A stretch of DNA of 62,059 nt, the filler included. It is 4 parts of 4 records of this genome, joined end to end, with 100 filler letters (N's around TTAATTAATTAA, not from the genome) between each part and the next. Parts side by side here need not be neighbours in the genome. Positions count along the whole stretch, not along the records: positions 56,892 to 62,059 come from SRR20825019_1369; 3 more parts are not named here. One strand, written 5' to 3'. This document shows positions 28,266-62,059 of this stretch, piece by piece. Under the pieces are notes generated by a model. The model was not told where the DNA came from. It did not search any database and saw only the letters and a list, made by a program, of their open reading frames with translations. The position numbers were made by a program, and so were the translations under genes. Each line of letters starts with the position of its first letter. The first letter of the stretch is position 1.

Positions 28266-28365
28266 NNNNNNNNNNNNNNNNNNNNNNNNNNNNNNNNNNN
28301 NNNNNNNNNTTAATTAATTAANNNNNNNNNNNNNNNNNNNNNNNNNNNNNNNNNNNNNNNNNNNN
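28266..28365. other. Artificial contig linker
   Basis: N44-TTAATTAATTAA-N44 (stops in all frames), identical to the other two linkers. Confidence 0.97.
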
Positions 28366-47705: not shown

Positions 47706-47805
47706 NNNNNNNNNNNNNNNNNNNNNNNNNNNNNNNNNNNNNNNNNNNNTTAATTAATTAANNNNNNNNNNNNNNNNNNNNNNNNNNNNNNNNNNNNNNN
47801 NNNNN
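47706..47805. other. Artificial contig linker
   Basis: N44-TTAATTAATTAA-N44. Confidence 0.97.
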
Positions 47806-56791: not shown

Positions 56792-56891
56792 NNNNNNNNN
56801 NNNNNNNNNNNNNNNNNNNNNNNNNNNNNNNNNNNTTAATTAATTAANNNNNNNNNNNNNNNNNNNNNNNNNNNNNNNNNNNNNNNNNNNN
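56792..56891. other. Artificial contig linker
   Basis: N44-TTAATTAATTAA-N44. Confidence 0.97.
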
Positions 56892-57370
<479 letters not shown>

Positions 57371-57424
57371 TTCCCACCTCGTGGCGTTGCTATGGAGAGA
57401 CCCTAGATCGGCTAGATGACAGCG

Positions 57425-58610
57425 TTAACTCATTCGAATGACATGCTCGTGACGCCTGCCAACCCCGGAGACGTCAAGTGTGCCATCGGCATGCACGATG
57501 TGGCCGCGCGAGAAGGTGGCATGCACCTGACCCACACCGGTGCGGGAGGCGATAGCCAAGTCAGCGCGGAGGCCGACGCAGATTTCGCCGCGATCTTCCA
57601 GGCCAAGGGCGTGGGCGGGATTGCGCGAGGTGAGGCGGGCGGCGCCAGCCAGACCATCGGGATCGGTTTCGGCCAGCACCAGCACTGCGGGCAGCATGGC
57701 CGAGGGGTGGTAGTCAGCGGCGAGCAGATCGAGCACGCCGGCAGCATGCGCATCACGGGCCGAGAGATTGCCCGAATAGGATTGGCCGCGAAGGGCATTG
57801 GGTGCGCCCATGGCATTGAGCATGCCGCGGCGATGTGATTCCTCGGCGGCTTCCAGGGTTACCGGAAACTCGGAAATATTGGCGCCGAGCTGATCCATCA
57901 GCGTGACCTTTTCGACCGTGTCATCGTCATGGCTGGCCACTGGCACGCCGTGCATGGCGCAATATTGGGTGATGGCGCGCAGCGTTTCGGTCATGTCGCC
58001 GGCAGTTTCCTGGCGGTCACGAATACGCTGCTGGAGCTGTTCCATGGCCGCTTCGGGCGAAATGCCTTTGTTCCTGGAGATATTGGCTGCCTGCAGGTCG
58101 AGGTCACGATACTGACCCTGGCCGGGTGTGTGGTCGCACAGCGAAACCAGGTCCACCGAGCCTTCGCCGACCAGTTCCTTGACCACCGAAAGGGCCGCCG
58201 GGAAGGTCACCTCGAACCGGGCATGGACCCGGTGGTCGATCAGCAGATTGGGACGTGCGGCGACAACAGCGCGGATCAGGGCGCTGGTGAAGTCGTAGCT
58301 TCGCATATGCCCATAGGTGGAGCCGGGGGCGAAGGAGAGCGAGGCATAGGCGGTGGTGATGCCGGCTGTGGCCAGCTTCATGTCGAGGTCGCGCAGACCC
58401 ATGTCCATGGGCATGCGCACGCCCGGGCGCGGCTCGATTTCGCGCTCGATCATGTCACCGTGCATGTCGATCATGCCGGGCAGCAGGAGAAGGCCGTCGC
58501 CGACGATGTCTGCATCGGCAACCGGGGTTTCGCTGATTTCGGCAATCAGCCCGTCCTCGATGCGCAGGGCGCCACGGTCGATGACGCGATCGGACAGAAC
58601 GATTTGAAAG

Positions 58611-58624
<14 letters not shown>
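57425..58624 (-). CDS. phnM: Alpha-D-ribose 1-methylphosphonate 5-triphosphate diphosphatase
   Basis: 'PGMIDMHGD', 'PRPGV', 'AGITT', 'DHTPGQGQY', 'ASHDD', 'SEFP', 'MGAPN', 'DY.P'. Confidence 0.9.
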
Positions 58625-59342
<718 letters not shown>

Positions 59343-59351
59343 GGGGTCACC

Positions 59352-60173
59352 TCAGAGCTTGGCGTGGACGAGTTGCTGGGTATAGGGGTGCTGGGGGTCC
59401 TGAAAGACCTGATCGGCCAAGCCCTGTTCCACCACTTCACCATGGCGCATGACCATGACCCGGTCGGCCATGGTGCGAATTACACCCAGATCGTGGCTGA
59501 CCAAAACCATAGTGATCTTGCGATCGCGCTGAAGCCTTTTCAGCGTATCGAGCACCAGCGCCTGGACGGAAACGTCAAGGCCGGTGGTCGGTTCATCGAG
59601 CAGCAGAAGGGCTGGTTCAAGAGCGATGGCCTTGGCCAGTTGTACGCGCTGCTGCATGCCGCCGGACAACTCGATAGGCCGCGCATCCATGCGGTCGAGC
59701 GGGAATTCGGAGGCGTCGAGCGCTTCGCGGGCCTTGTCGCGTAACACCTCGAAACTGCGCTCGCCGGCGATGAGCAGGCGCTCGGCAACATTGCCGCTGG
59801 AGGAGTGCTTCATCAGTAGCCCCAGATGGGGGTTTTGATAGACGATGCCGATATTGCGCGCGCAGAGCATGCGGCGCTCATATCGTGTGAGATCGAACAG
59901 GTTCTCGTTTTCGCGGCCGGGCAGGCGCAGCGTGTAGTCGCCGCTGTCCGGGGTGTCCTCAAGGTTCATCATGCGCAACAGGGTCGACTTGCCCGAGCCG
60001 CTTTCACCGACAATGCCCATGACTTCGCCGGGATAGACGGCCGCATCGACATGGCGCAGGGCGCGCACATTGCCATAGGCCTTGGAAATGTCGCGCATGT
60101 TCAGGATAGGATCGGTCCGCATCAGGCGGGGTGCAGCGCGCTCCAGCGCCGGAAGGCCAAGGTCGAGGCTCAT
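59352..60173 (-). CDS. phnK: C-P lyase ABC-type ATPase PhnK
   Basis: 'GIVGESGSGKSTLL', 'GNVAERL', 'SGGMQQR', 'DEPTTGLDVSVQA', 'DPQHPYTQ.LV'. Confidence 0.9.
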   Translation of the reverse strand: MSLDLGLPALERAAPRLMRTDPILNMRDISKAYGNVRALRHVDAAVYPGEVMGIVGESGSGKSTLLRMMNLEDTPDSGDYTLRLPGRENENLFDLTRYERRMLCARNIGIVYQNPHLGLLMKHSSSGNVAERLLIAGERSFEVLRDKAREALDASEFPLDRMDARPIELSGGMQQRVQLAKAIALEPALLLLDEPTTGLDVSVQALVLDTLKRLQRDRKITMVLVSHDLGVIRTMADRVMVMRHGEVVEQGLADQVFQDPQHPYTQQLVHAKL

Positions 60174-61084
60174 GCCGAATACTCCCCATTGCGATACCAG
60201 GTCTGGCCGATCTCGATTGCGGTGCCGTCGGCCTTGTCGATGGCCTTGATCCCCAGATTACTGTCAGACACTTCGAAGACCGAGCCGCCGCCATCCTGGG
60301 GCAACTCGTTCATGAAGAAGCCCCGGACATCCGAGCGTCGGCAGGTCAGGTCCGCGTGGTCTTCCACCTGGTAGGGACGATCGGAAAAGACCAAAGGTTC
60401 GACGCGCGTATAGGGTGGCACGGCATGGAGACGCTTTTCGCGGCCGGCCGAGAGGAAGGTCAGGTGCCTGGCCATATTGAGCTTGGGTACATCCCAGCGC
60501 GGGATCGGCGAGGGGGTCATCACGTGACGGCCGTTGACCATTGCGGGGTAGGAGGCGCCTTGCATGATGCGGCCCTTGCGCACGATCTGCTCGTAAAGCG
60601 TCAGCCAGAGTTTGCCGTAGTCGGCATCGGCATGCATCTGCCGGGCGATGGAGATGTTGGGCTCGACGCCGCGGAGTGGCTCAGGATTGGGCACTTGCAG
60701 CACCAGCACCTGATCGTCGCGCATGATTTCTTCGGGGATGCGGTGGCGGGATTGCACGATGGTTGCATCCAGCGTGTCCCAGGTTTCCGAGGCGCCGGAA
60801 ACGCGGGAAATGAAGCGGCGGATCGAGGCGGCGTTAACGCCGTCGTCAGCGCCCTGATCGATGACCTTCACGACCGAAGCAGAATTGACCAGGGTCAGCG
60901 TCACCTGCAGGCCACCGGTGCCCCAGCCGCGCGCCATGGGCACTTCGCGGCTGGCATAGGGCATCTGGCAGCCCGGCACGGCGATGGCTTTGAGCATCTT
61001 GCGCCGGAGTTCGCGCTTGGCCGAGGCATCGAGGAAACCGTAGCTGGTGGCGGCCCAATCTTTGGTCAGACTTGCAAGGCTCAT
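60170..61084 (-). CDS. phnJ: PhnJ homolog (C-P lyase subunit) lacking the radical-SAM cysteine motif
   Basis: 'KAIAVPG', 'GWGTGG', 'KVIDQGADD', 'Q.RHRIPE', 'PSPIP..D', 'AGREKR..AVPP'; only two Cys in the protein. Confidence 0.92.
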   Translation of the reverse strand: MSLASLTKDWAATSYGFLDASAKRELRRKMLKAIAVPGCQMPYASREVPMARGWGTGGLQVTLTLVNSASVVKVIDQGADDGVNAASIRRFISRVSGASETWDTLDATIVQSRHRIPEEIMRDDQVLVLQVPNPEPLRGVEPNISIARQMHADADYGKLWLTLYEQIVRKGRIMQGASYPAMVNGRHVMTPSPIPRWDVPKLNMARHLTFLSAGREKRLHAVPPYTRVEPLVFSDRPYQVEDHADLTCRRSDVRGFFMNELPQDGGGSVFEVSDSNLGIKAIDKADGTAIEIGQTWYRNGEYSA

Positions 61085-62059
61085 AGGACGGGTTCCTCTT
61101 CAGGTTCGGCGACGTAGACTTCGCCCTGGGCTTCGGCCGCAGCCTTTTTCGCCTTGGCGTCACGCATGGCATCCAGGATCGACTGGAAGGTCACGTAATG
61201 GGGCAGCTTGAAGTGAATGCAGAAGCCCGAGGCTTCGACACTTTCGGTGTGATAGAGGTAGAATTCCTCATGCACCGGCGAGCCGACGGGGGCTTCATCG
61301 GAGTTGAGGTCGAGGGTGGCGGCGGCAATCACCTTGACCTCGTTCCAGCCGAAAGTGGCGGCAAAGCCCAGTTCGAGATAGCCGCCCTTTTCCTTGGAGG
61401 TCACTTCGGCCTGGCTGACGCGCACGCGTCCGGCCGAGAATTCCGTGCCGCGCGGATGCCGGACCACCACATTGGCTTCGCCCAGGCGCAATTCGTTGAC
61501 CGTGGGGTGGGCATTGCCATAGCCGCGCATGGCGGCATAGCCGAGCGCCAATACGCCGCCGGTTTCGGCGCGGGCAAGGCTTTGCAGGCGATGGGCGCGC
61601 GAGGCCGGAAAGAGCAGGGGTTCACGCGTCAGGTCCGGAATGTCCTCCGGCGAAACCGCGGACGGATTGGCCGGAGCGACCAGCCCCTGCTGACGCTGCC
61701 AATCGGCCAGCGAGGGCTGCTTTGCCGGAGCCGGGCTCGGGGCCTTGTCGACGGCGGGCGACGCGAAAGGCTTGCCTTCGAGCACGTCGGTCGCCAGCAC
61801 ACGGTGGGAATAATCGAGCGTTGGCCCGAGGATCTGTCCACCTGGAATATCCTTGAAGGCGGCCGAGATGCGGCGCTGGGTCAGGACTTCGTCCTGCTTG
61901 ACCGGACGGGCGATGGCGAGACGTGGCTGGGTCGTGCGCCAGGCGCGCAGCACCAGCACGGCCTCGGAGAGTTCCCCGCCAGTCTGCGCCAGCGCCAATG
62001 CGGCCAGTTCCTCGTCATAGAGCGACGCTTCGCCCATCACCCGGTCGATCAGATAGGGC
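61081..62059 (-). CDS. phnI: C-P lyase subunit PhnI (N-terminus beyond window end)
   Basis: 'DRVMGEASLYD..LAALA', 'LRAWRTT', 'RRISAAFKDIPGGQILGPT.DY.HR', 'RGYG.HP', 'VEASGF..H.KLPHYV.FQ'. Confidence 0.92.
   Translation of the reverse strand, partial: PYLIDRVMGEASLYDEELAALALAQTGGELSEAVLVLRAWRTTQPRLAIARPVKQDEVLTQRRISAAFKDIPGGQILGPTLDYSHRVLATDVLEGKPFASPAVDKAPSPAPAKQPSLADWQRQQGLVAPANPSAVSPEDIPDLTREPLLFPASRAHRLQSLARAETGGVLALGYAAMRGYGNAHPTVNELRLGEANVVVRHPRGTEFSAGRVRVSQAEVTSKEKGGYLELGFAATFGWNEVKVIAAATLDLNSDEAPVGSPVHEEFYLYHTESVEASGFCIHFKLPHYVTFQSILDAMRDAKAKKAAAEAQGEVYVAEPEEEPVL

Follow-up and report, generated by a model that had tools for sequence, protein, structure and literature searches.

The window analysed here, a stretch of 62,059 nucleotides along which all positions below are counted, encodes a protein of the PhnJ family, a component of carbon-phosphorus (C-P) lyase, in which two defining features of a PhnJ of the radical S-adenosylmethionine (SAM) type are absent: the complete cysteine triad binding the [4Fe-4S] cluster and the cysteine carrying the thiyl radical. 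This Cys-less PhnJ (positions 60170–61084, minus strand; 304 amino acids plus stop codon) belongs to a conserved clade under purifying selection. The clade is part of a second and apparently old line of entire C-P lyase systems, termed class II below, with members in Alphaproteobacteria, Deinococcota, Chloroflexota and thermophilic Synechococcus. Class II is probably a working C-P lyase that makes or carries its radical in a different way and that serves in Devosia as a second system beside the canonical one.

C-P lyase is the main bacterial route by which phosphate is freed from phosphonates, glyphosate included, and the accepted source of methane in oxygenated waters. The radical-SAM model, reportedly worked out for Escherichia coli PhnJ by Kamat et al., has PhnJ bind Fe-S, cleave SAM and convert PRPn to PRcP plus alkane. 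It depends on a [4Fe-4S] cluster on PhnJ and on strictly anaerobic conditions, although aerobes run the pathway too. In passages of PMC9947105 the mechanism is called 'an unresolved conundrum' and the cluster site is placed 30 Å from Gly32, and in parts of that paper and of PMC11978286 the four cysteines are described as conserved and used to validate PhnJ. Full-text searches, which did not reach subscription papers or supplements such as the alignments of the structural papers, turned up no account of a PhnJ without these cysteines or of a second lineage of C-P lyase.

Sequence and predicted structure of the Cys-less PhnJ

The protein matches the Pfam PhnJ family (PF06007) with an E-value of 3.3e-112 and a score of 374.4 bits against a cut-off of 25, its residues 13–277 aligning to positions 3–268 of the 275 in the profile and thus covering the full domain. 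As stated in the original prediction, the reading frame is intact and coupled to both neighbours through ATGA overlaps (CCTATGAGC for the phnI stop and phnJ start, GGCATGAGC for the phnJ stop and phnK start); the translation contains exactly two cysteines, C39 and C248, and its C-terminal part reads as quoted there. In a HMMER alignment to the E. coli protein (4xb6_D; E-value 1.6e-80, residues 7–270 on 13–276, one gap of a single residue), C241 corresponds to C248 (codon 60341–60343), C244 to S251 (60332–60334) and C266 to V272 (60269–60271), and a MAFFT alignment of 95 PhnJ sequences pairs C272 with G278 (60251–60253); the segment equivalent to C241–C272 thus takes up positions 60251–60343, all on the minus strand. 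Only the first ligand of the CX2CX21C motif of the [4Fe-4S] cluster is kept, with S251 and V272 in the other two places and a glycine at the thiyl-radical position, so that relative to E. coli PhnJ two of three cluster ligands and the thiyl-radical cysteine are missing. The glycyl-radical site is retained, E. coli Gly32 being G38 in the window (60971–60973, minus strand). The same four assignments had been made by hand in the original prediction, and the E. coli segment used there agrees with the letters of 4xb6_D. Since the alignment frame is continuous, the cysteine changes are substitutions and not the product of a frameshift, as had also been argued.

An AlphaFold2 model of the protein has a predicted local distance difference test (pLDDT) score of 83.6 overall and of 88–92 over residues 240–300. 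It superposes on E. coli PhnJ (7z19_H) with template modelling (TM) scores of 0.83/0.92 and a root-mean-square deviation of 1.7 Å over 267 columns, and on this ground the C-terminal domain is predicted to fold while lacking the metal knuckle. The C-terminal extension (residues 279–304; 60173–60250, minus strand), in which Y297 of a conserved G-x-T-[WY]-Y motif lies at 60194–60196, is modelled with a predicted helix at 275–285 and short strands (pLDDT 88–90). Profile match, predicted fold and the place of the gene between phnI and phnK all identify the protein as a PhnJ; with the E. coli enzyme (alpha-D-ribose 1-methylphosphonate 5-phosphate C-P lyase, EC 4.7.1.1; PhnGHIJ(K/L) core complex, PDB 4XB6 and 7Z15–7Z19) it shares the Pfam family, 48% sequence identity to the solved protein and the same predicted fold.

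Conservation, phylogeny and selection

The best 120 database relatives of the window PhnJ share 85–98% identity with it and come from Devosia where named; the CX2C...C...C motif is missing in all 120, and their C-terminal text is nearly identical. It is also missing in 119 of the 119 best relatives of a Synechococcus homologue, among which are Thermus thermophilus (plasmid), Meiothermus, Deinococcus and many Chloroflexota. Retention of the motif in close homologues, which according to the original prediction would have pointed to a lone decaying allele or an assembly error, was thus found in 0 of 239 best relatives, whereas the equivalent of C241 is Cys in 231 of the 239 and that of G32 is Gly in every one.

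A search among 50%-identity representatives returned mostly fragments and was uninformative for mapping the clade. A locus scan with one genome per species yielded 80 loci, of which L001–L029 encode a Cys-less PhnJ and L030–L080 one with all four cysteines. The alphaproteobacterial Cys-less loci are from Devosia, Maritalea, Hoeflea, several Rhodobacterales, Cohaesibacter, Sinorhizobium, Rhizobium and Mesorhizobium, and those found elsewhere are from Chloroflexota, a thermophilic Synechococcus and a Deinococcus. We aligned the 80 sequences with the window PhnJ and 14 second copies from genomes with a Cys-less copy, and constructed quick maximum-likelihood trees (LG+G4), which are unrooted and from which no ancestral state was read. 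The 30 Cys-less and 65 four-Cys sequences were split on a single branch with a Shimodaira-Hasegawa-like approximate likelihood ratio test (SH-aLRT) support of 99, and the same split was recovered with a support of 92 when the columns of the C-terminal domain were removed.

Mapping of the four cysteine positions onto this tree, a check that had been proposed for the gene, returned a clean pattern. Position 241 is Cys in 30/30 class II and 65/65 canonical sequences, and positions 244, 266 and 272 are likewise Cys in 65/65 canonical sequences; in class II, position 244 is Ser (25) or Thr (5), position 266 is Val, Leu, Ile or Met (30 rows) and position 272 is Gly, Ala, Val, Met or Leu (30/30). The rest of the protein is strongly shared, with Gly at position 32 in 29/30 class II and 64/65 canonical sequences (one Synechococcus species has Ala there), His at position 108 in 30/30 and 65/65, and 67 columns at least 95% identical in both classes. 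Class-specific changes comprise F37Y, T141A, F191W, G206S and L251M/D252N, together with a C-terminal extension of about 25 residues that E. coli PhnJ lacks and that carries the conserved T-[WY]-Y as part of G-x-T-[WY]-Y. The ratio of nonsynonymous to synonymous substitution rates (dN/dS) between the window gene and three Devosia orthologues was 0.06–0.12 for the whole gene and 0.12–0.25 for codons 240–304, values that give no sign of the relaxed selection considered at the outset.

A second lineage of complete C-P lyase systems

The contig carrying phnJ (56892–62059, 5.2 kb) is cut at both ends, inside phnC and inside phnI, and holds six phn genes, all on the minus strand. Besides phnJ these are phnI (61081–62059, cut by the end of the contig and window; Pfam PhnI, E-value 2.8e-98), phnK (59352–60173; ATP-binding cassette (ABC) ATPase of the C-P lyase complex, Pfam ABC_tran, best match TIGR02323), phnL (58611–59342; best match TIGR02324), phnM (57425–58651, exact start uncertain; ribose 1-methylphosphonate 5-triphosphate diphosphatase, NF011988) and phnC (56892–57370, its 3' part missing at the contig join; phosphonate ABC transporter ATPase, TIGR02315). 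In an NCBIfam scan of the window proteins, PhnM exceeded its cut-off (522.9 bits against 369) and PhnC matched with an E-value of 5.6e-57 across the part present; no model matched PhnJ or PhnI. PhnK (228.8 bits) and PhnL (222.6 bits) stayed under their equivalog cut-offs of 302.85 and 256.3, respectively, which is consistent with a separate lineage of the whole system. The genes phnF, phnG, phnH, phnD and phnE are known from related Devosia loci and not from the window contig, with phnG and phnH upstream in L001–L003. The earlier statement that the rest of the operon looks intact therefore stands for the presence of phnJ, phnK, phnL and phnM, but phnI and phnC are partial and the remaining genes were taken from the related loci.

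The partner proteins diverge together with PhnJ. PhnI sequences are 51–89% identical inside class II and 35–43% identical to those of canonical clusters, and PhnG, PhnH, PhnK, PhnL and PhnM of class II are also much nearer to each other than to their canonical counterparts. As the whole of phnGHIJKLM co-diverges, it represents a second C-P lyase lineage, which we named class II. Its clusters hold G, H, I, J, K, L and M, the Pfam check having covered G, H, I, D, E and F. In most alphaproteobacterial loci the order is phnF-GHIJKLM-CDEE, three loci being without transporter genes, and in Chloroflexota, Deinococcus and thermophilic Synechococcus it is a compact phnCDE-GHIJKLM. The PhnD of class II matches the Pfam family Phosphonate-bd with an E-value of 2e-63. 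Shared with the E. coli system are Gly32, His108, the PhnI residues His328/His333 and the partners G, H, I, K, L and M, whereas phnN, phnO and phnP, which belong to the E. coli phn genes, were found in none of the class II clusters examined; of the neighbours that the original prediction had suggested looking for, phnG, phnH and PhnD are present and phnN and phnP missing. In the full E. coli-type pathway, PhnN together with PhnP or PhnPP (DUF1045) recycles PRcP to PRPP; in G001 and G406 the genes for PhnN and PhnP/DUF1045 adjoin the canonical cluster and not the class II one.

The motif of the two-His metal site of PhnI, HxKLPHYV, which lies at the interface with PhnJ (E. coli His328/His333), is invariant in 29/29 class II and 47/47 canonical sequences and reads HFKLPHYV in the window (His codons 61213–61215 and 61198–61200, minus strand). 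A Cys stands two positions ahead of the first His in 28/29 class II PhnI sequences against 0/47 canonical ones (window codon 61219–61221), the exception being a thermophilic Synechococcus sequence with Ala. A replacement cysteine triad was sought in class II PhnG, PhnH, PhnI, PhnK, PhnL and PhnM and none was found, single conserved cysteines being present in PhnI (28/29), PhnH (21/28) and PhnM (19/25). Radical-SAM and ferredoxin genes, which had been suggested as neighbours to look for, and flavodoxin genes were absent among 20 flanking open reading frames (ORFs) scanned at Devosia, Deinococcus, Anaerolineae, Synechococcus and Brachytrichaceae loci. These ORFs were matchless or matched GntR/UTRA, DHDPS-like, GDPD, L,D-transpeptidase, hexapeptide transferase, HAD, DAO oxidase, PfkB kinase or fasciclin families. 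A hexapeptide-repeat transferase gene separates phnK from phnL in the class II cluster of Deinococcus (L029:11752–12393), and another follows directly after phnM in an Anaerolineae cluster (L027:12926–13585), where a HAD hydrolase and a DAO-type FAD oxidase come next.

Class II alone or beside a canonical copy

The twelve alphaproteobacterial genomes first tested all encode a four-Cys PhnJ beside the Cys-less one (12/12, cysteines read), and Devosia sp. FKR38 has a canonical copy too. The further alphaproteobacterial counts, and those for Deinococcota and Chloroflexota below, were made by score against a class II profile instead of by cysteines, class II sequences reaching 490–573 bits over the full model and every other match at most 437. 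Among 400 evenly sampled species genomes of Alphaproteobacteria, to which G001 was added as the genome on which the sampling was centred, PhnJ occurred in 59/400, one of them with class II and with a canonical copy as well. Five further alphaproteobacterial genomes comprised three with both classes and two with class II only, the latter metagenome-assembled. Whether the host of the window has a canonical phnJ, a question raised with the original prediction, was approached through related genomes, 16 of 18 alphaproteobacterial genomes with class II having both.

In an alphaproteobacterial metagenome-assembled genome, a canonical phnIJKLM lies directly upstream of a full class II phnF-GHIJKLM-CDEE on the same strand (L009, about 1–20900). 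Rhizobium miluonense (G004; L081, L086, L091) has four canonical-type PhnJ matches and one class II copy, and G005 (L092) has an intact class II gene and a short class II-like PhnJ remnant, apparently a broken copy.

Outside the Alphaproteobacteria, the Chloroflexota, Synechococcus and Deinococcus genomes first tested (G008, G009 and G010) have a single PhnJ, which is of class II. The Synechococcus group has PhnJ in 4 of 12 genomes, one copy each and class II alone. In Deinococcota, PhnJ was found in 33 of 301 genomes, with class II in 30/33 and a canonical copy in 0/30; in Chloroflexota it was found in 28 of 401, with class II in 8, each time alone. Intermediate PhnJ matches with 391–437 bits against the class II profile also occur in Deinococcota and Chloroflexota (e.g. 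G586, G617, G657, G1090, G898 and G998), and several of those from Chloroflexota carry an in-frame TGA.

The canonical alphaproteobacterial clusters that co-occur with class II contain the same pathway genes and a PhnF regulator of the GntR/UTRA type, and differ from class II in a four-Cys PhnJ and a split organisation with DUF1045 and PhnN. Pseudomonas stutzeri, with its phn and htx operons reportedly described by White and Metcalf in 2004, may offer a precedent for a single cell holding two C-P lyases that differ in substrate range. Class II has a regulator and transporter of its own. In Devosia and the other Alphaproteobacteria it is therefore likely to be used for a different set of substrates or under different conditions of oxygen, iron or zinc supply. 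In passages of PMC11494704 the canonical clusters of Agrobacterium tumefaciens CHLDO are given as phnF / phnGHIJKLO, phnCDE and duf1045-phnMN, and part of PMC3266647 cites older reports of two C-P lyase activities.

Possible link to phosphonate use in Synechococcus

A Synechococcus PhnJ (P0397, accession ABD01166.1), which we take to be that of strain JA-2-3B'a(2-13) (OS-B'), groups with the Synechococcus class II homologue; it has two cysteines, no motif and a conserved G32 equivalent. It is of the same Cys-less class as the window PhnJ at about 57% identity, but with 288 amino acids it is shorter and has no T-[WY]-Y tail. The physiology of the phn cluster in this strain is reported to have been studied by Adams (2008) and Gomez-Garcia (2011), and no knock-out is known to tie the phenotype to the cluster. 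A genome of the Synechococcus group (G017) encodes a protein identical to P0397 as its one PhnJ match, and a close relative of the strain (L028) has the compact CDE-GHIJKLM arrangement. The only PhnJ found in this group is of class II, whereas Devosia sp. FKR38 has a canonical copy as well.

According to passages of PMC5955973, JA-2-3B'a(2-13) has a full phn cluster, without phnF, and can grow with phosphonates as its only supply of P; methane release from methylphosphonate is stated there for these cyanobacteria. Part of PMC6962044 treats cyanobacterial methane formation from methylphosphonate as established, referring to the work on JA-2-3B'a(2-13), and a passage of PMC9600594 states that the relative OS-A is without a C-P lyase operon. 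The strain cited for phosphonate growth and methane release, if our assignment is right, appears to have class II only, which is the main ground for regarding class II as an alkane-forming C-P lyase. This support is indirect and comes from the subclade most distant from Devosia.

Proposed mechanism and alternative explanations

Class II PhnJ cannot ligate a [4Fe-4S] cluster in the way known from E. coli, two of the three ligand cysteines being replaced, and it has no thiyl site at C272. The original conclusion that the window protein cannot perform canonical radical C-P cleavage holds as far as the missing ligands and C272 are concerned, the function itself being read from sequence. We nonetheless infer that class II yields alkane from phosphonate and, for the mechanism, that the chemistry would still be radical, given the retained G32 and the alkane formed by one strain. 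Gly38 would then act as the radical store and C248 would take over the thiyl role of C272: the equivalents of C248 and C272 share one knuckle in E. coli, and C248 is the best candidate thiol because it is the sole cysteine under class-wide constraint and sits in the same four-Cys site. The radical would be started by something other than a PhnJ-bound cluster, be it an activase encoded elsewhere, a different cofactor, or chemistry at the PhnI/PhnJ His site, where class II gained a Cys. A farther-reaching proposal, on which we are doubtful though it deserves consideration, is that unactivated C-P bonds are cleaved to alkanes without an Fe-S cluster or SAM cleavage on PhnJ, in an oxygen-tolerant manner and with C248, perhaps also the PhnI Cys, as working thiols.

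Several observations weigh against class II as a working C-P lyase with its own way of handling the radical. The frequent canonical PhnJ beside it (16/18 alphaproteobacterial genomes) leaves its sufficiency in Devosia unproven; PhnN, PhnP and DUF1045 were not found above curated cut-offs in the class-II-only genomes G017, G010 and G008; and PhnK and PhnL score under their equivalog cut-offs. The Synechococcus phosphonate phenotype is cited at the level of the strain and not of the cluster, and the Synechococcus/Thermus subclade stands at about 57% identity to the window PhnJ, has no T-[WY]-Y motif and, in Synechococcus, a PhnI without the class-specific Cys. The suggested role of C248 is drawn from its conservation (30/30 and 231/239), and all four cysteines are held to be needed in E. 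coli PhnJ.

Two alternatives, both of which we regard as unlikely, concern the origin of the radical. In the first, a radical-SAM activase encoded elsewhere installs a glycyl radical on G38, and PhnJ turns over without a cluster of its own. This would be a mechanistic variant of the explanation preferred here and not a different function. Pyruvate formate-lyase is activated in this way by its activase, and glycyl-radical enzymes with separate activases suggest, by analogy and without homology, that a Gly site can work without an in-cis cluster. Conservation of the G32 equivalent (29/30 and 239/239) fits such a trans-acting radical source, as does the failure to find a triad in PhnG, PhnH, PhnI, PhnK, PhnL or PhnM that could stand in, but the 20 flanking ORFs, a scan of the flanks and not genome-wide, hold no radical-SAM, ferredoxin or flavodoxin gene, the CDE-GHIJKLM clusters are compact, and one Synechococcus species has Ala in place of the glycine.

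The second of these alternatives, to which we give no better prospects, takes the Cys4 site as a structural metal knuckle and class II as its metal-free form, with the start of the radical or the whole cleavage moved to another place, of which the PhnI/PhnJ His site is an example. Zinc-ribbon ribosomal proteins, whose Cys-less paralogues have lost a Cys4 knuckle and kept the fold, would be an analogy without homology. Zn is bound at the Cys4 site in solved E. coli structures, and passages of PMC9947105 describe a model with the product PRcP in the His site. The His site is invariant in both classes with the PhnI Cys adjacent to it (28/29 class II against 0/47), and the substitutions by Ser/Thr, aliphatic residues and Gly/Ala are of the kind that may fill a lost metal site in a domain predicted with a pLDDT of 88–92. 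Against a purely structural site, the four cysteines are kept in 65/65 canonical sequences, a sign that in those proteins they do more than support the structure, and the experimentally linked Synechococcus PhnI is without the extra Cys. In-vitro activity of E. coli PhnJ is moreover reported to have been shown with a reconstituted Fe-S cluster, SAM and C272. If the site were structural after all, this would bear on the class I mechanism too.

More remote is the proposal, made as one option in the original prediction, that PhnI, PhnL and PhnM ribosylate another P compound and that PhnJ forms the cyclic phosphate by polar chemistry. It could accommodate the lack of PhnN, PhnP and DUF1045 above cut-off in the three class-II-only genomes tested, the low PhnK and PhnL scores, and the canonical system in 16/18 alphaproteobacterial genomes, which leaves room for a new role. 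We consider it improbable because the transporter genes match phosphonate families (PhnC, TIGR02315; PhnD, Phosphonate-bd, E-value 2e-63), PhnM passes its equivalog cut-off, and methane release and phosphonate growth are cited, in the passages quoted above, for a Synechococcus strain that seemingly has class II only.

The last option, a dead scaffold partner of a canonical PhnJ, for which one could cite the four-Cys PhnJ in the same 16/18 genomes and the adjacent clusters in L009, is refuted by the complete phnGHIJKLM partner set of class II and by the 42 genomes from three further phyla in which no PhnJ besides it was found (Deinococcota, 30; Chloroflexota, 8; Synechococcus group, 4), and a lone decaying allele, an assembly error or a frameshift, hardly credible in view of the continuous alignment, the 120/120 relatives alike among more than 260 in the same state, a dN/dS of 0.06–0.25 and identical DNA in three sequencing runs of one study (the source sample possibly among them), was likewise rejected. 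None of the 19 runs listed in the search for this DNA was an RNA run.

Other features of the window

The window consists of four contigs joined by identical linkers (N44-TTAATTAATTAA-N44) at 28266–28365, 47706–47805 and 56792–56891, and genes flanking a joint are not implied to be genomic neighbours. The GC contents of the contigs are 0.61, 0.61, 0.58 and 0.64. Two large Ser/Thr/Gly-rich repeat proteins are encoded on the plus strand of the lower-GC contig (50330–52402 and 54850–56791), and the minus strand of the interval separating them encodes a hybrid sensor kinase that has an AraC-type end. The first repeat protein has a hydrophobic-basic tail after VPEP, which we presume to resemble a PEP-CTERM sorting signal.

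Implications for the C-P lyase family

As a natural, widespread and selected Cys-less lineage that includes a cited methane releaser, class II offers an experimental handle on the dispute about the C-P lyase mechanism, and the existence of two natural enzyme classes allows a direct comparison of metal content, SAM dependence and oxygen tolerance. Surveys in which phnJ hits are validated by the four cysteines, as in parts of PMC11978286, would discard class II; the share at stake, by profile score, amounts to 30/33 of the PhnJ-bearing Deinococcota and 8/28 of the PhnJ-bearing Chloroflexota genomes sampled. If class II does cleave C-P bonds independently of an Fe-S cluster, the Cys4 site could no longer count as the engine common to all C-P lyases, and the contested mechanism of the E. 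coli enzyme would have to be read anew.

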